From IMG/VR virus record IMGVR_UViG_3300027963_000064: a stretch of DNA of 20,000 nucleotides, one strand, 5' to 3'. The notes beneath the pieces were generated by a model that worked only from the letters and a program-made list of their open reading frames with translations, was not told the DNA's origin and did not search any database. Positions 1,406 through 17,400 of the stretch are shown in pieces. This stretch comes from an uncultured virus (IMG/VR IMGVR_UViG_3300027963_000064) (lineage: Duplodnaviria; Heunggongvirae; Uroviricota; Caudoviricetes). Both the position numbers and the translations under genes were made by a program. Each line of letters opens with the position of its first letter. Position 1 is the first letter of the stretch.

Positions 1406-4400
1406 ATGTCTAGATTCGTACTGACTGCACAGCTACAGCTTCAAGCCCCCAATAACGTAGCGCAAGTTGTTAGCCAGATTCAAAATCAGCTAAATAATGT
1501 TAGCGTAAACGTTCAAGTTCGCGGTTCGGCCCAAGCTAATCAGCAAATACAGCAAATAACTCAATCTACCCAAGCCGCAACCACTGCGGCTGGTAGAATG
1601 GGTAATGCTTTTGCTGTTTCTATTCGTCGCTTTGCGGCTTTTTCTATTGCAACTAGAGCAGTAGGGCTATTTACTAGCACATTAGCTGATGCTGTTAAGA
1701 CGGCCATTGATTTTGAACGAGAATTGATTAAAATTTCTCAGGTTACTGGGAAAAGTGTTAGCGGTTTAAGAGATTTAACTGACTCAGTAACTTCACTAGC
1801 TACTGGACTTGGTGTTACCTCTGGTTCTTTATTAGAGGTTACAACGGTTTTAACCCAAGCTGGTTTATCTAGTGATGATACCAAGGTTGCTCTAGAATCT
1901 TTAGCTAAAGCCGCCCTTGCTCCTAACTTTGATAGTATTTCAGAAACGGCAGAAGGCGCTATTGCTATTCTTGCTCAGTTTAAACAGGGTGTTGGAGCAT
2001 TAGAAGGTCAGCTTAGTTCTATCGACGCTGTTGCTGGCGCGTTCGCGGTAGAAGCTGGTGACTTGATTGACGTTATTCGCCGTTCTGGTGGTGTGTTCAA
2101 GGCTTCTGGCGGTAGTCTTAACGAACTACTCGCGTTATTTACATCAGTAAGAGCCACAACCCGTGAAAGCGCAGAAAGTATTGGTACAGGTTTAAGAACT
2201 ATCTTCACACGTATTCAACGACCAGAAACGATTGAGTTCTTAAAACAGTTTGGTGTTGAGCTTGTTGATCTTAATGGTAAGTTCGTTGGACCTTATGAAG
2301 CCATTAAAAGACTTAGTGAAGCAATTAGTGGACTAGGAGAAGGCGACTTAACATTTATCAAGATTGCTGAAGAGCTTGGTGGATTCAGACAAATTGGTAA
2401 GGTTCTTCCACTATTACAGCAATTTAGCACAGCACAAGCTGCCCTAAATGTCGCTCAAAATGCTGGTAATGGTCTTACAAAAAATGCAGAAGCTGCACAG
2501 GCATCTTTAGCAATTAGAATTATTAAAGTTAGAGAAGAATTTTTAGCTTTAGTAAGATCAATGACGGAAACGCCAACGTTCCAAATTATGGCTAATGCTG
2601 CACTGAGTCTAGCTTCAGCTTTGATTAAGATTGCAGACTCTATTAAGCCTTTACTTCCATTACTTGGCGCTGTTGCTGCATTTAAAGCAGTAAAGGGAAT
2701 TGGTGGATTTTTAGGTGGAGTTGGCGCTGGTCTAACTTCTGGTAGAACTTTTCATGCTGGTGGCAGAGTACACGCTTTTGCTACTGGAGGTTTAGTTCCC
2801 GGAATTGGTAATAGCGATACTGTGCCAGCAATGTTAACTCCGGGTGAGTTTGTTATACGTAAAAGTAGTGTGCAAAAACTTGGCGCTAATAATTTAGCAC
2901 ACATGAATACTGGTGGCATTGTACAGAAATTTGCCACCGGTGGCACAGCAGACAAAATTGCTCAAGCAAGATCCCAAAAATTATCTCCAAACCCCAACAA
3001 AGAAAAAACAAAGACATACAAAGATGGTTCTTCATCTTCTCCTGTAGAGTTTGAGGTTAAGCCAAAATCTATTGGTGCATTTTTCATGAATCCGGCAGAA
3101 TCAGCAGATGATTCTATACCATTTGCGAAACAAAAGTTCCAACTCACAAATAAACAACTCCTAAGTTTAAATGGCATTCAGCCAAAAACATTGCGTGACG
3201 ATAATAAATTTGCAGTTGGACAATATGCAAATGCTGTATTAAAACCCGGATCAGTTTCTACATTTTATCCAAGTTTAACAGATATTTCTCGCGGTTCTTT
3301 TAGCGAAATTATACAAAGCAATGTTCAACAAAAATTAACAGAGGCTGTAGTTGATACAGCTAATTTTATTCAAAGCAATAAATTATTAGATATACCTCCA
3401 ATAGATTCCAATGAAGCGTTACTTAGGCAAACAGCCGCAAGTAGAATAGCTCAAGATAAAGGTGCTATTAGAACAACATCTGGCTATTTATTTGAAGGTG
3501 TTATAGATGCTATTACCGGAGCAAAACCAGCTTCTGGAAATGCTAATTTTGACTTTCCACCATCTTCATTACAGGGAAATAAACCAAGATTAGCTTCTTT
3601 GTTTGGAAATCCTGCTGGAATTCAAAACTTAGCACAAGCAGACGCCAAAGCGTCATATTCATCTAAAATAATTTCTGGAGGCGCTGGTAGTGGTAGCATA
3701 CTAAGTAAAATCATCAATTCTATAAATGATGGTAAGCTTGGTGGAATTAAAATGATTGCTAAAAAATCTCTTGGTGGTATAATTCAAAAATTTGCCGTTG
3801 GCGGTAGAGCTAAAGGCATACAGGGCGCGCCACTTGTTGATGATATTCCAAATGCTTCTGGTTCAATTCTACCAAGACCAAGCGCAGCTATACAAGCTTT
3901 AATCAAGGCTGGCGGTGGCGCAATTGACGTTGATAGAACAATTAAACGAACAGTTGGTGACACAGCATACGCCAAAGCCCCAACTCCGGGAGCTAAAGAA
4001 GCCTCACTAAATACATATTTTAGAGATGAAGTCAAACGTCTTCAAGATTTACAATCTGCTCCTGTAACGCAGTTTGGCAAAGAATTAAAAGTTGCAATTA
4101 AGAGTGGACAGTTAGATGCCCGCAAGATAAGCATTATAAGCAAGTCAAAAAGAGTTAAGGGCGCGGCTGAATATTTAAGTTCATTGTTTGGTATTCCAAC
4201 TCAGAATATGATTTTTACTCAGGGTGGTAGTAAACAGCCCGCTTTAGATGCTATTAGAAATAAAGGCTCTAGAGTAGACCGCGTAAAATTTGCTACCGGC
4301 GGCAATGTTGGAACAGATACAGTTCCTGCATTATTAACTCCCGGCGAGTTCGTTGTTAATAAAGCGTCAGCACAACGTATTGGCTATGGCAATCTTAATC

Positions 4401-7400
4401 GCATGAATAAGGTTGGTAAATATGCCAAGGGTGGCGTAGTACAGCATTTTGCTACTGGTGGAACAGCAACAGGTGGAACAAAATCAGTTGTTAGCAATAT
4501 TCCAGTTCCCGGCTTTGAAACAAAAGCTCCAACATTGCTTAATAAAATAATTGCACAATTAACAGGAACATTTTCAGTCGTTGATGTAGACTTAAAGAAA
4601 AGCTCTAAACAATTTAAACTTCTTCAAACAATTACACCAGATTTAGCTAAATCTTTAATGGATTATGCTCAAGCTTCAAATTTAAATGTTAAACAAACGG
4701 GACAATTAGCCGGTGCATATTCTAAGCTTGTTGGCACAATGTTAATGCAAGGAGATAAAGATTCTCAAATAGTTGCTAGTATGCAACCATATGTAGAAGC
4801 ACTGAAAGCAGATACTAACGCTAAATTAAATTCAGCCAAAGCTACAGCATCAATGACACCAGTAAATGCGGCTGCATCTAAATTTCCATCGCTTACTCAG
4901 TCTACACCAACTCCGCAGACTTCATCATTTCCTCAATTAGTAAGTAAGCCAGCACAGCAACAACAGCAAGCAAATAGTTCCACATCTACTATGGCAACTT
5001 CTGCTAATACTACAGCTATTGCTAGTAATACACAAGCTCAAAAAAGTGCAGCCCAAAGCGCTATTGGCGTTGTAAATAATAATAAAATGTTTGCTGCTTC
5101 TATGGCTACCAGTTTAATTGCAGGATTTTTACCAGCCGTGGATGAAAACAGTGGAGCTATATTGCGTGTTACGCAGTCCCTTTTTGCTATGACTACCGCC
5201 GTGTTTGGAACTTTAGCCGCTTTAGAAGCTATGAATCTTAGTTTGAATAAACAAACAATATCTAATGTATTAGATTTGTTGTCTGGTAAAGGTGGAGCAA
5301 TAGCTAGTAAGGTTGGACAATTTGCTGGAAATGCTTTAGGTGGAACTAAGATTGGTGGCATGATTGCCCCAATGGGTAATCTTGGTGGCGGGCTAGGGGC
5401 TAAAGCCGTACAAACATCAATTACTCAAGCTGCAACTGCGATTGGTGGCATAGTTGGTCCATTAGTTGGAGCAACTGCTTCATTTTTTGCAATACAAGCT
5501 GCTGGAAATTTATTAACTGAAGCTTTTATGAATTATGAAGGAAGACTAAAGAAAGCAAAAGAAACCGGAAACGTAGAAGGTGCTAGAAAAATAGCCACCG
5601 AACAACAGTCATCTAAAACAGCAGTAAATATGGTTGCCGGTACAGTTTCTGGAGCTATTATTGGCACTTTATTAACTCCTATTTTGGGTCCATTTGGAGT
5701 ACAACTTGGTGCCGCTGCTGGTGGGTTGATTGCTAAATCTTTATCTGATTTACCAGAATATTCAGGACAAGTAGCGGCAAGTCAGGCAGCTACAATAAAA
5801 GCTCAAAACTCTTTAGCAAAAGCTAGTGAAGATGCTACCAAAGCCCTATCTGATTTTGAAAAGGGTAATATTTCAGCAACAGAATTAATAAAAAGCACAT
5901 CCGGCGCTGCCAACGACGTTGCTACCGCAAAAGCAGAATCTAAAAAATTAAATGATCAATCACAAAAAGAAATATCAAGAGAGGGAGATTTTGGTGGATT
6001 AAGAGGTGGATTAAGAAATGTAGTTACTCTTGGTGGATTACTTGGAGAAAGCACCGGTGAAAAACAGGCTAGAATAGAAGCAGAGCAGAAAAAATCTACA
6101 GCCGATGTATCAAAAGCAGAAAATCAACTTATAACTAGCTCTCAACCAGTACTAAATTCTATATCTGGAGAGGTTGCTAGTTCTGGTGGATCTTTTGAAG
6201 ATGTATTAAGCCGTATTGAAGTAGACAATAAGGGTCTTTACGATGCGCTAATAAGTCAAGGTACTAAGCCTCTATCAGATGCATTTAACAACATAAAGAA
6301 AGAAGTCGAACGCGCCCAAAAAGCATTTAACGCAATGAATCTTGGTATGCAGAATGTTCAGGGTGCAGCAGCCGCAGCAGCACTTGGTGTTAATAATTAT
6401 GTTGCATCACAACAGGCTGGCAATGTTGGATTAGAACAATCATTAGCTGTTCTTGAAGCAAGTGTTACATCTGCTGCGCAAGGAATCAGTAGTGCAGATT
6501 TTGGTAAAGCTTTAAGTGATGCTTCAGAAGTATTATATGAATTTGGAGCTAATCCAGAGCAAGTTACTAAATTTCAACGCAACATTAGCGCCGTTAATGA
6601 TGTTCAGAAAAATCAATCTTCTATATTTGGTGGAGCAAAAGAGAAATTAGCAGAAAATATTCGTGCTTCATCTGGCGCTCAAGGAAGAAGAGAAGCATTT
6701 TCTAAATCTATTGACGAACAACTCAAAGCTTCTGGATATGACGATGCTACAAGGCAACGATTTCAAGATGCTTCAGCAAACATGTCTGATGATCAACTTA
6801 AAGAAATTGGTAAAGGCAACTTTCAAGCTTTCGAAGAATCTATTAATGAGCTTGGCAAAAAGACAATGGAGCAAGTTAATGGTCCACTCAAGGCCGCTAT
6901 TGAAATTCAAAAGCAACTTAACGAATTAACCAAGCAAAGAATTGAAGCTGAACGTCAGCTAATGAGCGCGCAACTAGAAGCTTCCAATGTAAGAATGGAA
7001 GCTATGGACATTGCCGCAAAGTATGGCGGGCCAAAAGTTACTCCAGAAATGCGAGCAAAAAATACAGTTGAGCAAGCAAACATTCAAGCTAGAGGAATTA
7101 ACGGCGTTACAGATCTAAAAACAGGAAGTGCAGCGGAGCTATCAGCTAGAACACAACAGCTATCAGCAAGGCAAGCTGAAATTACTGGAATAAAAACTAG
7201 AGCGGCCCAAGGTGACGCTGCCGCCACACAACAACTACAGGGAGAAAGTGGCACAAAGCTTGCAGAAGAAGAAAAAAGAATTGCCGACGCAGCAAAGAGC
7301 CAAATACAAGCTACTAGAGACTTAATTAAATCTAAAGAAGAAGAGCTTAGAATAATTAAGGAAAAGAACCAACTAGAAAAAAGTTCTATTGATGCTTTGA

Positions 7401-8404
7401 TTTCTGGCGACATTGAGAAGTTTTTTGAACAAAAAGCCGCTGTTGGAGCGCAAGCAGCCATTGCTACTGGCGATCAAAGATTGATTGGTCAATTTGGAAT
7501 GAGTGCGCTTGGTGGTGCAGCGCAAGAAACAAAACGCCAACAAGAGGCTGGTGTACAAACATTATATGGTCAACAGCTTGCTGGCCCCGGAGGTTTAACA
7601 GAAAGAGCTTATGGTTCCGCAATTTCCGCATCCGGTATTCAAAACCCATTAGCTATGGCTCAAGTTGCTGCTGGTTCTACTGGAGCAGAAAATGCATTAG
7701 AAAGCGATATTAGAGATTTAGCAGCAACAATGGGTCCAGCGGCAGATATACAAGTTCAAGCAGCAAATGGTCAATTGCAAGCAGCAGAATTACAATACAA
7801 AGCTGCCACAGCAAAGGGACAAGAGGCTGTTGCGCAAATGCAGTCTAGAGCTAATGGCGGTATGATATATGCTAATCGTGGAATATTCGTGCCTCGCGGT
7901 ACAGATACAGTTCCCGCCATGTTAACTCCCGGAGAGTTCGTTGTCAATAGAGCGGCTGTTCAACGCGGAAATAACTTGCAAATTTTACAATCAATGAATA
8001 GAGGTGTTTCATCCTCTGCTCCCGCAGCGTCTTCACAATCTGGCAATGTTGCAACTATGGCAAACGGCGGCATAGTTAGATACAGAGAGTCAGGATCAAA
8101 CGGTCCAGAAGCTGGCGGTACTGGTATAAATACAGAAGCACTAAATGCATTTGCGGCAGCATTGAGTCAATTTAATACAGAGCTAACAAAAAACATTCAA
8201 ACATTAGCAAATACTAAATTCCAAGTTTCGCTTAGTCCAACTGATATCAACGTTAATTTAACAGGAACATCTTTCTTATCCAATTTAGCTGCTAATATAA
8301 AACAAGATCTTCTAAAATTTCTTAGTCAGGAAATTAGCAATTATAGTGTAGGTAATGATGGGAAGTTAAGGAAAAGTGGATCTACATTAGGAACCGTAAC
8401 CTAG
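1406..8404 (+). CDS. Phage tail tape measure protein (TP901/PhageMin_Tail-type N-terminal core) with inserted enzyme-like domains
   Basis: 2332 aa, Ala/Gly/Gln-rich and helical. The TMP core is at about 1690-2450 (AIDFERELIKISQVTG...LTQAGL...GGSLNELLALFTSVRATTRESAESIGTGLRTIFTRI). Gly-rich hydrophobic segments lie at about 2580-2740 and 5090-5740, and long coiled coils at about 5780-7440. There are three GG...DTVPAxLTPGEFV modules of the type seen in phage TMPs. Confidence 0.92.
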   Translation: MSRFVLTAQLQLQAPNNVAQVVSQIQNQLNNVSVNVQVRGSAQANQQIQQITQSTQAATTAAGRMGNAFAVSIRRFAAFSIATRAVGLFTSTLADAVKTAIDFERELIKISQVTGKSVSGLRDLTDSVTSLATGLGVTSGSLLEVTTVLTQAGLSSDDTKVALESLAKAALAPNFDSISETAEGAIAILAQFKQGVGALEGQLSSIDAVAGAFAVEAGDLIDVIRRSGGVFKASGGSLNELLALFTSVRATTRESAESIGTGLRTIFTRIQRPETIEFLKQFGVELVDLNGKFVGPYEAIKRLSEAISGLGEGDLTFIKIAEELGGFRQIGKVLPLLQQFSTAQAALNVAQNAGNGLTKNAEAAQASLAIRIIKVREEFLALVRSMTETPTFQIMANAALSLASALIKIADSIKPLLPLLGAVAAFKAVKGIGGFLGGVGAGLTSGRTFHAGGRVHAFATGGLVPGIGNSDTVPAMLTPGEFVIRKSSVQKLGANNLAHMNTGGIVQKFATGGTADKIAQARSQKLSPNPNKEKTKTYKDGSSSSPVEFEVKPKSIGAFFMNPAESADDSIPFAKQKFQLTNKQLLSLNGIQPKTLRDDNKFAVGQYANAVLKPGSVSTFYPSLTDISRGSFSEIIQSNVQQKLTEAVVDTANFIQSNKLLDIPPIDSNEALLRQTAASRIAQDKGAIRTTSGYLFEGVIDAITGAKPASGNANFDFPPSSLQGNKPRLASLFGNPAGIQNLAQADAKASYSSKIISGGAGSGSILSKIINSINDGKLGGIKMIAKKSLGGIIQKFAVGGRAKGIQGAPLVDDIPNASGSILPRPSAAIQALIKAGGGAIDVDRTIKRTVGDTAYAKAPTPGAKEASLNTYFRDEVKRLQDLQSAPVTQFGKELKVAIKSGQLDARKISIISKSKRVKGAAEYLSSLFGIPTQNMIFTQGGSKQPALDAIRNKGSRVDRVKFATGGNVGTDTVPALLTPGEFVVNKASAQRIGYGNLNRMNKVGKYAKGGVVQHFATGGTATGGTKSVVSNIPVPGFETKAPTLLNKIIAQLTGTFSVVDVDLKKSSKQFKLLQTITPDLAKSLMDYAQASNLNVKQTGQLAGAYSKLVGTMLMQGDKDSQIVASMQPYVEALKADTNAKLNSAKATASMTPVNAAASKFPSLTQSTPTPQTSSFPQLVSKPAQQQQQANSSTSTMATSANTTAIASNTQAQKSAAQSAIGVVNNNKMFAASMATSLIAGFLPAVDENSGAILRVTQSLFAMTTAVFGTLAALEAMNLSLNKQTISNVLDLLSGKGGAIASKVGQFAGNALGGTKIGGMIAPMGNLGGGLGAKAVQTSITQAATAIGGIVGPLVGATASFFAIQAAGNLLTEAFMNYEGRLKKAKETGNVEGARKIATEQQSSKTAVNMVAGTVSGAIIGTLLTPILGPFGVQLGAAAGGLIAKSLSDLPEYSGQVAASQAATIKAQNSLAKASEDATKALSDFEKGNISATELIKSTSGAANDVATAKAESKKLNDQSQKEISREGDFGGLRGGLRNVVTLGGLLGESTGEKQARIEAEQKKSTADVSKAENQLITSSQPVLNSISGEVASSGGSFEDVLSRIEVDNKGLYDALISQGTKPLSDAFNNIKKEVERAQKAFNAMNLGMQNVQGAAAAAALGVNNYVASQQAGNVGLEQSLAVLEASVTSAAQGISSADFGKALSDASEVLYEFGANPEQVTKFQRNISAVNDVQKNQSSIFGGAKEKLAENIRASSGAQGRREAFSKSIDEQLKASGYDDATRQRFQDASANMSDDQLKEIGKGNFQAFEESINELGKKTMEQVNGPLKAAIEIQKQLNELTKQRIEAERQLMSAQLEASNVRMEAMDIAAKYGGPKVTPEMRAKNTVEQANIQARGINGVTDLKTGSAAELSARTQQLSARQAEITGIKTRAAQGDAAATQQLQGESGTKLAEEEKRIADAAKSQIQATRDLIKSKEEELRIIKEKNQLEKSSIDALISGDIEKFFEQKAAVGAQAAIATGDQRLIGQFGMSALGGAAQETKRQQEAGVQTLYGQQLAGPGGLTERAYGSAISASGIQNPLAMAQVAAGSTGAENALESDIRDLAATMGPAADIQVQAANGQLQAAELQYKAATAKGQEAVAQMQSRANGGMIYANRGIFVPRGTDTVPAMLTPGEFVVNRAAVQRGNNLQILQSMNRGVSSSAPAASSQSGNVATMANGGIVRYRESGSNGPEAGGTGINTEALNAFAAALSQFNTELTKNIQTLANTKFQVSLSPTDINVNLTGTSFLSNLAANIKQDLLKFLSQEISNYSVGNDGKLRKSGSTLGTVT
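2750..2944 (+). repeat. TMP internal module copy 1 (FHAGG-FATGG-DTVPAMLTPGEFV-MNTGG-FATGG)
   Basis: Core DTVPAMLTPGEFV at 2816-2854, repeated at 4316-4354 and 7904-7942 with mostly synonymous nucleotide differences. Confidence 0.9.
2945..3760 (+). other. Putative PD-(D/E)xK (restriction-endonuclease fold) domain inside the TMP
   Basis: Motifs in canonical order: helix SGYLFEGVIDAI (E at 3494), strand NFDFP (D at 3551), then ADAKAS (D-x-K at 3641-3649). Confidence 0.55.
3806..4288 (+). other. Putative HAD-superfamily phosphatase domain inside the TMP, circularly permuted
   Basis: Motif I GAIDVDRTI (DxDxT at 3926-3940), motif II ISIIS (S at 4139) and motif III GGSKQP (K at 4232). A motif IV-like PLVDD (3839-3844) lies before motif I. 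Confidence 0.6.
4289..4462 (+). repeat. TMP internal module copy 2 (FATGG-DTVPALLTPGEFV-YAKGG-FATGG)
   Basis: Direct translation; same core and the same downstream L-x-x-M-N element as copy 1. Confidence 0.9.
7847..8071 (+). repeat. TMP internal module copy 3 (RANGG-DTVPAMLTPGEFV-...MANGG)
   Basis: Direct translation; core at 7904-7942, followed by LQSMN and MANGG at 8057-8071. Confidence 0.9.
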
Positions 8405-8412
8405 GATATATT

Positions 8413-11400
8413 ATGGATTGTATTTTACAGCAGACAAGTGCTAAAAATCTTGCTAGTGGCACACTTAAAGCTAATGCTACAGTTATTCATAGGCCAAACA
8501 AAATAATAGAAGGCAATGGCTCTGTCAAAGCAAATATTGGTATTAATATCAATATTGGTTTTAGTCAAAATTCTCAGCCGCTATTTGGTCAAACTGAAGA
8601 ATTTTTATTCGGCGCTGCTCCATCTCAACCAGTTGTTATCACAAGATCAGAAAATAGGTTATTTTGTGTTGGTTCTTTTAGAATTCTGAATTCTAGACAA
8701 TATCGCGTAAACGACCAGACATACGTAGTTGATGATGAGAGTGATATTCTAGCTATTAGAGTTAATAATGCTAGAGTTCTTGATGTTGTTAATCCTTATA
8801 GTGAAATAAATCCCACCCTTGATACAAGCCAAGATAACTCTAATTTATCTGCATTTCTAACATTATCAAGTAACAATTTAGAGTCAAAAATTTTAGCCGT
8901 TGGTCAGTTTAGAAATATCTACACTGATAAGATAGGTGGCACTCTTGGTAAGATTAAGTCTATACCACGTTTTAGGGCTACACAAAAACTATACCCCATT
9001 AAAGATATTGTAACATCATCTAACGACGTTTATTTTGTTAACAAAGATCTGTCATCTGGAAATATATACCAAAGCGTTAATGAGGGGCTTGCTATTGGTA
9101 ACTATACAGACAATGGCGATAAAAGCACTAGAATAGCTGACGATTCATCTACATTTATACAACCATCTTCTATATACTCTCAGGGTGATTTTACATATAA
9201 ATGCGAAGTGTTTCCCCCAACAATTACACCCAAAGAGAGTTTCTTATTTATAAGAGCAGCCGCTCCACTAATTTCTTACGAATCAGATGTTCCAGCAATT
9301 TATAAGATTCACAATATAAAGCTAGAAGATCCATCTGGTAATCTTATTGTAAAATACAAAGACATTACCTTTCGTGGCGACGGTAACTACTTAAAAGAAG
9401 ATCAGTATAACTTTACAACATATGTTACGGAACCAGAAATTAATTATGCTTCTCTGCATACTTGGGAACCAAAGTTTCCAATTTTAGGAGAAGCTAGTGG
9501 CTATACTCTTAATTTAGATTTTACGGTTGATTGTATACACAACCCATTCTCTCGCGCTTTTAGCGGTGGGTACGAAGATGAATGTAAGTTAGACTTTGTT
9601 GAAACAAATAAGAATGATTATCTAGCACTAGACGGTTCGCCACTATCAACAAGAACCCAAGGGTACGAACTAAACCCAAACAATTCACTTAGAATTTCCT
9701 GTATTGAAATATGCAACAGTGGCGCACTTTTTGGTTTATTAAATGATAATTACCTAGGTTTCCATACTGAGGTTCAGCCAACTGGTAATAGACTAGAACG
9801 AATTATATATCCTTGTAATGTATTATCTTATGATTTTGATACGGGGATATATCCAGTTGCTAGCAGTGTGTGGGAATCATCTCCAGATATTGATGGTAAT
9901 ATCTCAACAAATACTAGTAACAGTGGACAAGCCGTATTGACAGACAGATTACGAAATATATTTCAAGTTGGACATATTACACTAGACTCTATTTCAAGCG
10001 TTACAAACTCTGGAAAGCTTCAATTACAATACAAGCATGAACCACCATTTGGTATTAAACAACAAACCGGTGGACCATTTAATTTTGGCGGCAAAGGTAG
10101 AAACAAATCATTAAATAGCTCTGTAAAAGAATTGGTTTATGGAAATGATATTTTCTTTACCATTGACTCTATAGAGCTACAAATTAGCGCAAAGAAAGCT
10201 GAAGGATCTCCAGATTACACAATAGACGTTGTTGGTTATAGTGATGATGGTGTTGTTAATATAACGCCAGCCGTTGGTGGATTTTTACAAAACAATGAAA
10301 CATATGATTCAAGCAACAGTTCTTTAGTTCCAGTAATTTCTGGACAAAAACAAACTAATGAATTAGCCATTAGTGCTGAGACTTTATCAGATAAAGATCA
10401 ATATTTTGAAGAACACATTACTCTTAATCCAGCTAAAGATCACTATGTTGTTTCAAAGTTGCCGCTAATCAATAGCACATCTTTCAAAAATTATACTATC
10501 CCACTAAAGATTTATCAAGACTCTGTTGAGCTTGGTTCTCCAAGAGATTACTCAATGAGTTCATTCTTTGAGAATCTATACATTGATATTTATCCACTAC
10601 CAAGCGGAGCATCTTTTGCTAAAGCTAATCTAGTTATTAAATACAAGCCATCTAATGCATTGCCATTATATACATTTGGATATCAAGAAAAAGAACTAGC
10701 GCAACGTGAAATCAAAATATATCCTTCACCAAGACAGTCTAAAGACAATATTCTTAATGCTATTTGGACAGATGCCCCACTATCACTTATTGAAGATATT
10801 CCACACGTATATAAAACTCCCACAACGATTAAAACAAATTACTCGCGCAGGTGGCGCGGAGTTGACGGTTCTACATTCGCTGGCCCATTTGATCCACTAG
10901 ATTTCAATTTTGCATTTTATAATCCACAGCTAGAAACACCATTCCTTGATGGATATTTTGATCTTAATAAAATCGATGGCAATGTTATTCTTGCTTCATC
11001 TGAAAACAGTGCCAATCTTAGTGGTATAATTGTTGGTGGAGAAATAAATAGCATTATTAGAAATATCGGGCTTAGATTTAATAGCTCTGGAATTTTTACT
11101 CACCAAGAAAGATTGTATAAGACATTAGATTGGACTTCTACCGGCCATGAATTATACGGCCACATTCTAGATTCCTTTGACAATGCACTCAGAGTTTCTG
11201 GTGTAAGCTGCAACATTAATTTTGGTGATGTTAATGTTTCTGGTGGATTTTCTATATTTACCAGATTCTGTCCAGATTCTACTATTAGCGGCGTGAACTA
11301 TAACCTGTTTAATTCTGGCGTTATAGCCTCTAAGTGGGATAGTGATAAAAATCTTGAATTTACTCTAGGTTACAATAGCGGCTACCTATGTGCCAATGCT

Positions 11401-14400
11401 AAAGATGCTGATGGAAATATTGTCACCATACAAGACTCGTCATTGTACACGGAGTATCAATATCCACTATCAATATTATTGACTTATAATGACAATAGCT
11501 CAAGAAAGCTTAAGCTCTATACTGACAATGAAATTGCTAGCGGCAGCTTTAATGTTTTAAGGGCAAGTTCTGATGAGTTTGACTTGGTTGAAAGCCACAG
11601 CGATTTGGTTTTTGGTTATTCTTCTGGATCTGGTGTCGGCATTAATGGGTTCATTAGCGAGATTGGTATTTCTCAATTCAACACCTCTGGCACAAACATC
11701 ACAGAAAATAATACAAATAGCAGATTACAGCAAGTAAAAGCTGAACATTTCTTATCAACACACAGAGCTAAGTTCTGGAATGATGGAGAATCTGTTGCAA
11801 ATGATAGATATAAAATGTGGCAATATGTTGATGAAGATACAGACCAGTGGCACTTGGGCGCTTTTAAGTATTGTGATTTTTTCTCATCTTATGACACTCT
11901 AAAAAATAGAGTTGGCAAAGATTTCATTGTACACAACTTTAGCACCAACGGTATGACTTATGGAAATATCACAAATATTCCACTCCCATCTAACGTTCCA
12001 GCATCAAATCTAGCTTACCATTCTCAGTTAGAGAATGATATGTTAAGATTTAACCTTGGTGGAAATACTAATAGATTATTCTCAGTTGCGCCAAGAATCA
12101 CTAAGGCTTTACCTCGTAGCTATTCTTTCAATGAAACCGGTTTTGTAGTTGATACTATTCTTCAACACGAAACCACAAATGATATCATTTGGGAAGATGG
12201 CACAGTTGGTCCACGACTCATTGTTAGTTTGTACACTAAAGCTAAAGACTCTGACCTTTTTGATACAACAAATTGGGGCTTAATTAATAGAAGTATTCAT
12301 CATATTGGCCCACAAGAATGCTGGTCTAAAATTAGTAGCAAATTTACACTTAATAGCCTCACAGATAAATCCAGTGAGCCTTGGTCCAACTTCGTAACAT
12401 CTAGAAACGTTACAGAGCTTAATCACAAGTTCTTTTCTAAAGATGTTGACGAAATGTTTTTGCAGTACGACTTAGTATATCCATCTGGACATTACGAGTC
12501 TAAGATTAAGATTCACTCAGCACACGTTAAGCTAGAAAACGCTTTACTAAAAGCTGAAACTGTAAACTCTTTAGATTTCAAGCTAGCTATTAGCGGAGAA
12601 GCTAGAGAACGAGAGGTTATGCCGCTGTCCCTTCCAAACACTTTTGGTTCAGTTGAAACATCTGGCAACGGCCTCACAATGTATGCTTCAGGATATTTAC
12701 TTATTCCACATACAGATTCCATGCCATTATTTAGTTCTGGTGCATATCTATTAGATAATAACGTTATGCCCCTACATTCCGTTACCGTTGGCTATATTGG
12801 CGCACCAACATTCACAGAATTTAATTTTGGCTCATCAGAAGATCAACTGTTTGGCTCTAATCCAACATATGGCCCAACACTATTCGTCGCCGGAAGAACA
12901 GATAAATACGACGATACTACGCTGGCGCTGTATATACAAAATAATCAAACTAACCCATCTGCAAACGAAACATTAGTATTATTTACGTCTTGCCCGCCAA
13001 CAACAAATACTAACTATTTTGATCTTTTTGTACAGGGCGGTTTTCCACCATTATCATACTATACAAACTCATCTGCCCCACTATATGTTAGTGCGCCAGT
13101 GCCAGATCCTATTGTAAGTGGCACTCTACCATTTATTATTGATGCCGTAAACCCAAATATTGTAAGTGTTAGTGGCTCATTATCTCTAATGGTAATGAAT
13201 CAATCTACTATTAATGCTGGATCAAATCAATTAGAGAGTTTCTTGTGGGATAAAGATCATGTTGGTAAAGATATTACTGTAGAAGATAACTATTTAGCCT
13301 TCTTTGATGCAAATAGCGAAATACGTGGCGTCCAAACAATATGCTACGGAACATGTGACAATGGCGGTACTTGCCAAGAGCTAGAGGTTATAACTCATGA
13401 TACAAAATGGTATGAATCGACCTGCGTTGAAGGTGGAGCATTAAGAGCATTAACAACATATACCAATTCAGATGCTGGTTTTAACAACAATTTCTATGGA
13501 ATTCGCAAATTTGACAAACTAATACCGCAAGCTCCATACCAAATAACAATTGTTGGCAAAACTGGAACAAGCGGAATTGCTCAAGTTCCAAGAGAAATGT
13601 CAGAATGGGAATATGGCTTTAATGAAGACGTTGGATATTCTGGACTTAAAATAGTACCTTCAGAACTAGACAGAAACGCTAATGATCAATATGGCAAGTC
13701 TATATCGATCAAAGATGATTTAATGGCTATTGGCGCACCATTCCATAACATTCAAGATTCTGATGGCTATGAAATAACAGACGCTGGCGCAGTCTTTGTG
13801 TATCGAAGAAATCCAGAACCTAGTGGTGTTGATTGGACTCATCAGCTAGATAAATCTCCTTGGTCATTAGAGGCTAAATTATCTTTACCAGATGGATTTA
13901 AACGAGATTATTACGACACAGCCAATAGACCTTTCTATCAAGATGGACAACAGCTTCCTTTTTATGGAATAGAAAAACGTTGGATTGTAGGACAAGAAGG
14001 AAGACAGCTTGGGCATTCTATCAGTATATCTAAAACTAACAACAGAGAAGTAATAGTTGTCGGTGGCCCAAGTTGCAAATGGAATAGAACTTTTGGTGGA
14101 ATACAGACTCAGCCCATTAATGTTGGGTTGTTTATTTTTACAGATGAATTTGCTCCTACTTTTCCGTACCCATGTGATCGTAGGGGCGAATGTGCTACTT
14201 ACGAAAATATTATTCCAATTATACGGCAAAACGACCTGTTGTTTAAATATTTTTGTGACCCAGCAGTTTCTTTCAATGTAGAAATTATTATTTGCGAACC
14301 CATACTTGGTACCAATAGTGATCCATCCCCAGATTTTGCAGATCCAAAACCAAATTTTGTTACTAAGTATCAAATTAATAGACATACTTATTATAACAGA

Positions 14401-17400
14401 AACACAAATCAGTTTAGAACTAAAAACACTGAAATCTTTAATGATATCAAATCTGCTTTTGAGTCTGTATTTCCATACGATGAAAGCAAGTTGCATAACA
14501 ATATTCCTCCAGTTTTAGGTTTTTATATAGATAACTCTGCATCGTTGGGTTCTAGAGCATTACAACCTGCACTAGATCAATTTGTTAAGTATTATCAAGC
14601 TTATTCTTATGCGAGCGGCTTGAAAGATTTTGATAATAATCCAGCTAGTGGTTATGCTAATATTACTATAGCTATAGATGAAAACTGGATAGCTCAAGCT
14701 TCTACGTTAATTGCTGATACTCTTGATACTGGACGCATGATTGAGAATAATACATTTCAGTTATTTGCAAATAACTTAGGACAATTTAATCCAAATGCTT
14801 CAGATTTCAATATACCTCCAGCTAGTGGTGGTAGCGTATACGTTTACGAGAAACAGGGCAACGATTGGGAAATTATCCAAGAAATTAAATCTCCTACAAC
14901 TTTAAGCTCAATTGCTCCAGATAGATTTGGACACGCAGTAACTATAAGCGAGAGTGGCAATATGATTATTGTTGGCTCTCCATATATGGAGCAAGCTGTT
15001 TCTATATATGAATATAGGCCGCACATTAAAGAACAAAAATATGCATACTTCCCATCTTGGCTTAGTAGCAAAGCTGCTCAAGATACTTCTTTTGGACATC
15101 TTTTTGAGCTTAATAGAAGACTACAATCTTTACTTGCTAATGCAACCCCATCAAACCAACAAAGCATTGTAAAACAAATTTATTCAGAAATGAATCCAAG
15201 TGGCAAATTTGAATTTAGGAGAAATCTTAACCTACAAGAATACGAACTTATTAGGACTGTAACGTATTCTGATATTAATCCCGGCGCATCTTGGAGTTTC
15301 TTGTTTGATAAGTTTGCACCAACCTCACGATTAGGATATAGCGTAGCTTGCAATGAAGACGGATCACTTGTTGCCATTGGCGCTCCAACAGATAGCATGG
15401 GCGCACAAGATAATGCAAATATTTGGTGGAAACCCGGATTTACAAGAGATACACAGTGGCAATCTTATGTTAATGCTGGAGCAATCAGAGTTCTTGAAAG
15501 TCGTAATTACTACCCACATAATAAAGTTGTGGAATATGGAAAGTTTGGAAATTTACATGAACTTTTAAGTCCAGATTATGATGCACCTTTCTTTAATCAC
15601 ATGGAGCCAATTTATGAAAATAATTTTGGCATCACTTTTGAAAAAACAAGTTTCGCTGAAACAGAAATTCCACAAGAGGCTGGCACACTATTTATTACTA
15701 CGCCAGCGGTTGATGCTGCTAGTGAAGAGATAGTGAACAAGATTAAAAATTGGCTTGCGCTAGGTGATAGAAACCTAGTTTTGGTTGGTAATGATCCAGT
15801 ATGGGAAAATAACGGAGCTTATGCAGAATCTAACTCCATTATTAATTATTTACTAGAGAGATTAGACTCTAGAATGAGGCTACAACCAGCTAGAAATAAA
15901 TATGAATCTCTTGTTGATAGTGATTTGTCAATTAATATTTTACCATCCCTTGTTCCATCTCACACAACTTCTTCTTACGTTGCTCCATCGTTCTTGAGGG
16001 GTTCTGGAGTTGCCGATATTAAATTATATTCTCCTAGCGCAAGCGCGGGATATAATTGCGGTGCTGGTGGTAAATCGGGATTTAGATATGTAGATGTAAA
16101 TGATAAGTGTGAAATGCAAATTAAACACAGGGGAGATATAAGAGCAAAATTTAACTTAACTTGCGAAGATATGTTTGGTAATCCAAGGCCTTATGAAATG
16201 AACTTAGCTATGTATTTTGGTACAGTTACCCTAGCTTCTTATGGGTGTGATAGTGGACTTTCTAATAGTCCGACTTATCAGTATGAACCAATTCCAATTA
16301 TGGCCGCTGGCGAAAACGCTTCTAGAACTATTATATATCCAAGAATACCAGAGCGCACAGAGGTCTATAATTATAGGGAAGCCGTTGGACAAAGCCCCAA
16401 TGGTAAATATCCAGTATTTTCTAATTCTCCAGATAGCGGAATTGCTTTTATATGGTCTTCTGATAGTGGAAATTATACAGAGCTAACTCTTAATCTCGGT
16501 GCCAACGTAAATAAGAGCGCATTCTTTGATCCACCAGAATACAATAGCAAAGACGCTTTGCTTATGGCTACGGCAGAAGTAAAAACGGATATTGTGAATA
16601 CAAACCCAGTTGTATCTGATAAATTTTATTATGCAGCAGAAGAACAATACGGCGACACATCATCTAGTATTGTAATCATTGCTGGCACGTTTACTGAATC
16701 TCGCTCCGCTTTGCTATCTTCTAATGCTGATAAAAACTTGAATTTCTATGGAAATATCGTCGCAAAAGATGCAGACGGCAGCGCAAGAATTGCCCAACTT
16801 GGTAATTGGACAAATATTACTAGCTTTAAGGCTGGAGATAACCAATCAGATCTATTAAACCGATTAACAAGCCTTGGTAATTTTGTTGATGAAAATGTTT
16901 CAGCTTACGATCTTAGTGTGACAAGTAACGGGTACGACGTTGGCTGGATTGCGAACACAACGGAAAATCCATCAGAAGAAGAGCTAGAAAGAATAATAAG
17001 ATGGCTAAACCAAGGAAACAAAAAACTTGTTATTACTTACGGTCAAGACCCCTCAAGTAATGATCCAAAATCTACAGACGATTATTATGCAAATATCTAC
17101 ACAACGTCTTCTGCTAGAGCGGTAACGTATTTATGTGACAAACTTGGAATCTCAATGAGGCCAATGTTCTTATTGGGAAGAAATAAATACGCAACAAAAC
17201 GAGATGCCGTAAATAAATATCAGCTTACTAATGAGAATATTGCTATCAACAAAAACTATGACCCAATTTATAGAGGAAAAAGAATTGGCTATACTCCAGA
17301 TAGTAAAATTGAAACATATGCACTTGTCAGAGGATATATCGAAGATATTATCCCAATACAGCTTAATTCGGGAACTGCATTAGCATATTTTAATACTCCA

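Follow-up and report, generated by a model that had tools for sequence, protein, structure and literature searches.

The tape measure proteins (TMPs) of long-tailed phages are usually viewed as rulers and channel formers, and their known passengers are cell-wall enzymes only; the TMP of phage TM4, with its Rpf-like motif, is said to embed one. Another enzymatic domain lies inside pb2, the TMP of phage T5; a cut behind R1127 releases it as a metallopeptidase piece, which remains in the tail until ejection (PMC10038345, in the part of that report dealing with pb2). Here we describe P0001, a TMP encoded in a 20,000-nucleotide stretch of DNA from an uncultured virus (IMGVR_UViG_3300027963_000064; the whole stretch is called the window below). 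Two folded inserts sit in a slot in P0001 between short glycine-rich joints, and relatives of P0001 exchange their inserts exactly at these joints. The enzymes of TMPs of the T5 pb2 type attack peptidoglycan and lie near the C-terminus, whereas the inserts of P0001 are found in its N-terminal quarter and behave as exchangeable cassettes. The chemistries suggested for the cassettes (HAD/receiver-like, possibly nuclease, and ADP-ribosyltransferase (ART) in relatives) point to cytoplasmic targets.

The TMP of phage lambda, gpH, shares with P0001 a sequence module of the form FAxGG, PAxxxxGEFV, IGxGNLxxM and YAxGG, which is C-proximal in gpH as in many PHROG TMPs. While gpH has one copy of this module and no passengers, P0001 has three copies, two of which border the slot. 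MuF-anchored polymorphic toxins, reportedly described by Jamet et al. in 2017, are said to join a conserved virion scaffold to a variable, exchangeable enzymatic end; they differ in that their scaffold belongs to the head and bears a single C-terminal toxin, whereas P0001 is a tail protein whose slot is internal and takes several cassettes. Polyvalent proteins (Iyer et al. 2017, PMC5512222) resemble P0001 in that a single large polypeptide associated with the virion combines several enzyme domains of the conflict type, ART among them, and is considered to enter with the DNA. Their description stresses separating metallopeptidases, of which we found none in 87 TMP segments, and in P0001 the TMP itself is the scaffold, with one standard joint forming the junctions. 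The terms "tape measure", "tape-measure" and "TMP" have no occurrence in Iyer et al. 2017, and a literature search covering main texts did not turn up any paper in which TMPs carry ART, nuclease or HAD cassettes. A 2023 survey reported mosaic signals in TMPs, with no genuine recent case confirmed in the sections concerned (PMC10684548). The slot of P0001 extends two known kinds of system, TMP-embedded enzymes and polyvalent proteins.

Exchange of inserts at glycine joints

The gene for P0001 occupies nt 1406..8404 of the window on the + strand, as do all features of the protein given below; this 6,999-nt frame without a stop is translated to 2,332 amino acids. It encodes the TMP of an uncultured long-tailed aquatic phage: residues 129-312 match PF10145 (PhageMin_Tail) with 85.9 bits against a cut-off of 33.2, and the protein also matches three PHROG TMP families (phrog_4211, phrog_1272 and phrog_28). 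The N-terminal TMP core (N-core; aa 1-447, nt 1406..2746) is conserved, with 65-97% identity across the listed relatives and many invariant columns in an alignment of 21 sequences. Behind it the slot is laid out in the order module 1 (aa 448-513, nt 2747..2944), domain A (aa 514-786, nt 2945..3763), the short joint KSLGGIIQKFAVGG (aa 787-800, nt 3764..3805), domain B (aa 801-961, nt 3806..4288) and module 2 (aa 962-1019, nt 4289..4462), the two modules being the left and right borders. We placed the short joint by the position of its pentapeptide and by the points at which alignments with relatives end.

The joints are built from a small set of motifs. Pentapeptides of the form [FY]AxGG begin at aa 458, 509, 796, 962, 1006 and 1015 of P0001, and copies of DTVPA[ML]LTPGEFV at aa 471, 971 and 2167. 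A preliminary description of the window had pointed out these motifs; every one it named is in place, and the third DTVPA copy, at aa 2167, lies beyond the range it covered. In 5,000 shuffles of the protein, [FY]AxGG occurred 0.146 times on average and none of the shuffles reached six, so chance does not account for the motifs. At the DNA level, four 39-nt copies of the joint are 67-79% alike relative to a reference copy, and three 68-nt module cores are 60-82% alike.

Together the motifs make up a module of ~60 residues with the plan FAxGG, then DTVPAxLTPGEFV, then GGxVQxFAxGG. Module 1 reads FHAGG/FATGG, then DTVPAMLTPGEFV, then GGIVQKFATGG, and module 2 reads FATGG, then DTVPALLTPGEFV, then YAKGGVVQHFATGG. 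The short joint between domains A and B is the module's own tail, 11-14 residues of the form GG-h-I-Q-K-F-A-x-GG. We built a hidden Markov model (HMM) from 381 modules and scored P0001 with it; the model found module 1 (95.1 bits, aa 447-523), module 2 (91.0 bits, aa 950-1023) and a third copy, module 3 (76.4 bits; aa 2143-2223, nt 7832..8074). Lambda gpH has one match, of 25.7 bits at aa 731-790, and judged by this profile match the ~60-residue module is homologous to that part of gpH. The module also matches 20 PHROGs, 15 of them named as TMPs, mostly near the C-terminal end of the profile. Because gpH and the PHROG TMPs carry the module C-proximally, we read module 3 as the ordinary C-proximal TMP module, and modules 1 and 2 as additional internal copies. 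Among cultured phages, tblastn found the module in TMPs of Gordonia, Ralstonia and Nitrincola phages and likewise in a Synechococcus phage protein annotated as transmembrane; none of the 63 records returned covers domain A or B.

A word-indexed search with the slot contents (aa 514-961) found 96 TMP-length relatives, on contigs of up to 164 kb, and in IMG/VR at least 632 stretches encode relatives. When 97 proteins were cut at the pentapeptide and the 544 resulting pieces were clustered, the N-core came out as constant, the slot as variable and the rear as conserved. The 93 TMPs with the N-core have 39 different slot contents; a slot holds between one and seven cassettes, and these belong to 41 families. 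A-B occurs most often (33 proteins), followed by A alone (10) and A-B-ART (8); the reversed order B-A occurs in three proteins, and one protein has three copies of A. Since these 93 TMPs were retrieved by similarity to A and B, every one of them holds A or B. An independent set of 93 non-redundant TMPs drawn from the loci yielded 176 clusters, with A present in 59 and B in 22.

Exchange is most readily seen where the backbone is nearly the same. Eleven TMPs whose N-cores are at least 90% identical, P0001 included, hold seven different slot contents. One relative, P0003, equals P0001 through GGIIQKFA-x-GG and is identical again from FATGGNVGTD, and between these points domain B, with its 161 residues, is replaced by an unrelated stretch of 110 residues; the left edge of this replacement is the short joint, and identity returns exactly at the FATGG of module 2. 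Across 153 relatives aligned over aa 300-1250, 180 of 396 endpoints of high-scoring segment pairs fall no more than 8 residues from a pentapeptide, where 12% would be expected (binomial p 2e-61, a value that overstates independence because the sequences are related). Such ends pile up at aa 780-809, the short joint, and 44 of them lie in aa 960-969, where module 2 starts; in relatives with 88-96% identical cores, similarity stops at aa 513-540, at the end of module 1. The preliminary description had proposed that the joints may also be exchange points and had suggested a comparison of homologous TMPs. That comparison bears the proposal out: the segments between motifs differ among relatives in number, order and identity, while the flanks are kept. 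We conclude that relatives exchange inserts exactly at the GG joints.

Domains A and B and other passengers

Both inserts of P0001 are predicted to be folded. We modeled them with AlphaFold2 (AF2) using alignments from related loci, and obtained a predicted local distance difference test (pLDDT) score of 82.1 and a predicted TM-score (pTM) of 0.78 for domain A, and a pLDDT of 91.6 (~92) and a pTM of 0.86 for domain B. These models agree with the earlier characterization of the inserts as globular, non-TMP domains. Their extents, first given as ~270 and ~160 residues starting and stopping at GG joints, also hold: 282 residues separate FATGG (aa 509-513) from FAVGG (aa 796-800), and 161 separate the latter from FATGG (aa 962-966).

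The domain B model is alpha/beta, with a four-helix insert right behind the strand that ends in a DxDxT motif. This motif lies at aa 841-845 (nt 3926-3940), after model strand 38-40. The alignment of 119 distinct copies of domain B reveals a small set of nearly invariant residues: D841, D843 and S914 are kept in all 119, T845 and K943 in 118, and an acidic pair, D812-D813, in 114. Three HAD motifs are found in order, namely motif I (DxDx[TV]), the motif II serine and the motif III lysine. We did not find the motif IV acidic pair after motif III; the position aligned to GDGAND of SerB reads TQGGSK, in an hhalign comparison that was itself non-significant. Taken together, the residues follow the CheY order (DD, DxDxT, S, K), and DxDxT together with a cap is a HAD feature. 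In a Foldseek search of the PDB, the ten best rows were all HAD phosphatases (phosphoserine phosphatase, AphA), with weak scores (best E 1.3e-2, TM-score 0.42), and the closest fold matches are class B/C acid phosphatases that act on nucleotides. Comparisons of domain B with E. coli SerB and CheY by hhalign were not significant. Given the mixed motif order, the lack of a motif IV acid and these non-significant alignments, we assign domain B to neither family and describe it, from its model and motifs, as a HAD/receiver-like phosphoaspartate domain. It would probably form an aspartyl-phosphate on D841 and act as a phosphatase or phosphotransferase.

Domain A has a beta-rich N-terminal half, long helices and a C-terminal half with short strands in its model. 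Its N-half is variable and its C-half conserved, and the conserved residues again form a small set: among 133 distinct copies, G693 and E697 are present in all, D716 in 132 and K748 in 130, with position 746 being D in 95 and E in 35. E697 lies on model helix 172-191, and K748, the lysine of the (D/E)xK motif, on model strand 231-235. The series E..D..(D/E)xK fits the residue pattern of PD-(D/E)xK enzymes, including the D/E alternation, and suggests that domain A is possibly a metal-dependent nuclease.

Sequence databases returned no family for either domain. Searched as segments, A and B have no Pfam match at E <= 10, no member of their alignments (A4 and A5) has a usable Pfam match, and neither domain matches a PHROG. 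The best E values against PDB sequence profiles were 0.039 for A and 0.64 for B, both to unrelated proteins, and the ESM Atlas gave nothing usable for either (best 0.88, unnamed viral clusters). We also considered A or B as common stand-alone enzymes and rejected this. An exhaustive search of 1.84 billion representatives, open to proteins of any length, gave 106 hits, nearly all of 1,500-4,400 aa. Nineteen are shorter than 1,200 aa, and the 16 of these that we read are all TMP pieces except one. That exception, the non-TMP protein P0162 (599 aa), has a domain B-like stretch with DFDRT; its parts are split by GFIPNF, repeated three times, in place of xAxGG, and GFIPNF may form another joint system used by this passenger.

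The slots of relatives hold other passengers. At E <= 1e-3, Pfam assigned no family to 83 of 87 representative segments; the remaining four gave two ART hits, a glycine zipper and a weak match to a domain of unknown function. The ART cassette, which belongs to relatives and not to the window, matches PF03496 in P0058 (28.5 bits), P0082 (29.8 bits) and L029:11987-12478 (33.9 bits), all above the cut-off of 23.4, and also matches the PHROG "RNA polymerase ADP-ribosylase". Its R-S-E triad is intact, with the Arg, Ser-Thr-Ser and Glu-x-Glu elements conserved in 11 distinct sequences. By these matches, the ART in the same slot is a bona fide effector type. In seven loci (L029, L056, L070, L072, L073, L074 and L050) the TMP frames are as long as 5,091-5,686 aa, and their joints delimit far more segments.

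Possible roles of the slot and cleavage of the TMP

We lean toward an explanation in which P0001 is a TMP with a recombination-swappable slot for folded passengers, framed by two internal copies of the old ~60-residue TMP module. The passengers within the slot would be linked by the glycine joint derived from the module tail, and the joints would serve first as flexible linkers and also as the sites where homologous recombination exchanges passengers. The slot is placed upstream of hydrophobic glycine-rich segments of the TMP. If the TMP leaves the tail tip-first, this N-terminal placement would make the slot region exit last, immediately before the DNA, and passengers packaged in this way could reach the cytoplasm. 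The TMP of lambda is labelled from the cytoplasmic side during injection, according to the portion of PMC13190303 on this point. Once ejected into the host, the passengers would act early in infection on nucleic acids or nucleotides, the latter being what the nearest structural neighbors of domain B act on. The tail may carry a changeable set of enzymes in along with the DNA.

A further possibility, which we put forward tentatively, is that the TMP serves as a scaffold for delivering polymorphic effectors. A maturation module of ancient origin would have been duplicated to frame a slot that is loaded by recombination at a standard joint, and nuclease-like, aspartyl-phosphate and ART enzymes plus dozens of unknown folds would be threaded through the tail just before the genome, disarming or reprogramming the host within seconds of the start of infection. 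If this is true, the scaffold would be the tail-borne counterpart of head-packaged polyvalent proteins and of polymorphic toxins. A slot that accepts cytoplasm-directed enzymes and swaps them at one standard joint would be a second route, besides head-packaged proteins, for pre-loading early-acting effectors. It would also supply a concrete, confirmed example of recent mosaicism among TMP domains, make tens of uncharacterized passenger families candidates for anti-defense or takeover functions, and give phage-tail engineering a natural, portable joint for attaching cargo.

Several observations weigh against a slot for swappable enzymes. With 83 of the 87 segments lacking a Pfam family, the term "enzymes" cannot be generalized to the passengers. 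Four fold searches with domain A (Foldseek PDB, BFVD, VIA wide and pdb_via) returned no nuclease, and the rows they did return span helices 111-185 only, a helical hairpin; the earlier label "nuclease-like" has its basis in the conserved E..D..(D/E)xK pattern. Of the 93 TMPs with the N-core, 86 have domain A, a count biased upward because these were found by similarity to A and B, and so do 59 of the 93 TMPs from the loci, which makes domain A resemble a family fixture more than free cargo. Mosaicism also extends past the slot: in P0002, whose core is 97% and domain A 100% identical to those of P0001, the S/T/Q-rich and hydrophobic parts (TMP aa 1023-1460, window 4472-5700) are only 32% identical. 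Some breakpoints form a secondary cluster at aa ~680-699 (window 3440-3500), within domain A and away from any glycine joint, and the variable N-half and conserved C-half of domain A seem, from their alignments, to be exchanged separately. Finally, three to six folded domains of 18-31 kDa would not fit side by side in a lumen of ~4 nm, so passengers would have to be stored staggered or unfolded.

Some of the same observations would fit inserts that touch host inner-membrane factors or are sensed by defenses, with their turnover reflecting escape or host switching. The N-half of domain A turns over fastest (100%, 99%, 32% or undetectable identity in proteins whose cores are 93-97% identical), most segments have no family, and the mosaicism reaches beyond the slot. 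SNIPE, a defense nuclease, binds the TMPs of siphoviruses, and mutations in the TMP allow escape or alter the inner-membrane factor used, as stated in the relevant passages of PMC13190303. We nevertheless consider a contact role rather unlikely: the small sets of near-invariant acidic, Lys, Ser and Thr residues in A and B are the pattern of an active site and not of a binding surface, and in relatives the same slot holds an ART whose R-S-E triad is intact.

The module also bears on where, how and why TMPs such as lambda gpH get cut. The stretch of gpH that matches it (aa 731-790) falls next to the maturation cut, in gpHC, the C-terminal piece removed when gpH matures to gpH*. In the text of PMC12617516 that covers TMP cutting, such cutting is demonstrated only for T5 and lambda, and the precise cut site in gpH and its catalyst are given as unknown. 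The sequence record of T5 pb2 reads FVPR, then AEGG, on the two sides of the cut, and module 3 of P0001 has FVPR-G at aa 2161-2165, ahead of its core; modules 1 and 2 have no FVPR, and they and the short joint lack its basic residue. Our module HMM has no match in T5 pb2 (-3.3 bits), so the likeness to T5 is a four-residue resemblance spotted by eye. Among relatives, the core has P-[RK]-G-[TSA] in front of it in 92 of 100 C-proximal modules but in only 27 of 275 internal modules. A maturation cut at module 3 is plausible; by analogy with T5 and lambda it would be expected at the C-proximal module, but not necessarily at the internal joints.

The preliminary description had treated every xAxGG as a cleavage or release site, making P0001 a polyprotein that would be processed at each joint into free enzymes released in the host. 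The homology of the module to gpH, the T5 cut that frees an enzymatic domain right before AEGG (PMC10038345, as far as the pb2 section goes), and the same four residues, FVPR, at aa 2161-2164 speak for such processing. Yet the basic residue largely follows the C-proximal copy, and Pfam found no peptidase or lysozyme families in the 87 representative segments or in the full TMPs scanned. We regard the polyprotein as improbable; cleavage at internal joints is unsupported, and the distribution of the basic residue argues against it.

TMPs are made late and assemble with chaperones, which counts for inserts that serve the producing cell or tail assembly, as a plug, a length-independent spacer or a docking site for chaperones, and that are removed before maturation or never leave the virion. 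The poor fit of folded domains in the tube lumen and the possible loss of three of six gpHC copies during lambda maturation (PMC12617516, in its account of gpHC) are in line with this, but structural roles leave the conserved DxDxT/S/K set and the ART triad unexplained, and inserts are gained, lost and reordered on near-identical backbones, which argues that no single insert is needed for assembly. We regard such a role as very unlikely.

Remaining features of P0001 and neighboring genes

Directly after module 2, P0001 has an S/T/Q-rich stretch. This is followed by the hydrophobic glycine-rich, glycine-zipper-like segments at aa 1343-1364 and 1405-1432 (nt 5432..5701; Kyte-Doolittle windows >= 1.5), and glycine-zipper Pfam families match the equivalent part of relatives with scores below the cut-off. 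A long, mostly unannotated region separates these segments from module 3. The protein ends with a C-terminal domain (aa 2226-2332, nt 8081..8401) that corresponds to a conserved cluster at the C-terminal end of relatives.

Two open reading frames (ORFs) lie ahead of the TMP gene on the + strand, at nt 174-521 (115 aa) and 531-1361 (276 aa), and neither has a Pfam or PHROG family above threshold. The position just before a TMP gene is the usual place of tail assembly chaperone genes. In one relative, L017, the 13 neighboring ORFs gave two weak tail-fiber PHROG hits only. Eleven matches in genome collections (L144-L154) come from metagenome-assembled genomes labelled Verrucomicrobiales, SAR202, Flavobacteriales, Saccharibacteria, Woesebacteria, Thermoplasmatales and others; because these phyla are unrelated, the matches are probably phage contigs that were mis-binned.

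The gene after the TMP, at nt 8413-19998 (+), encodes more than 3,862 aa and runs off the window. Its product has FG-GAP repeats (PF14312, 76.8 bits) and no PHROG match, and frames of ~3,200-3,340 aa follow the TMP in L004, L013-L015, L031, L042, L054, L057, L059, L061-L063 and L065. The product of nt 8413-19998 may be a giant distal tail or central fiber protein.

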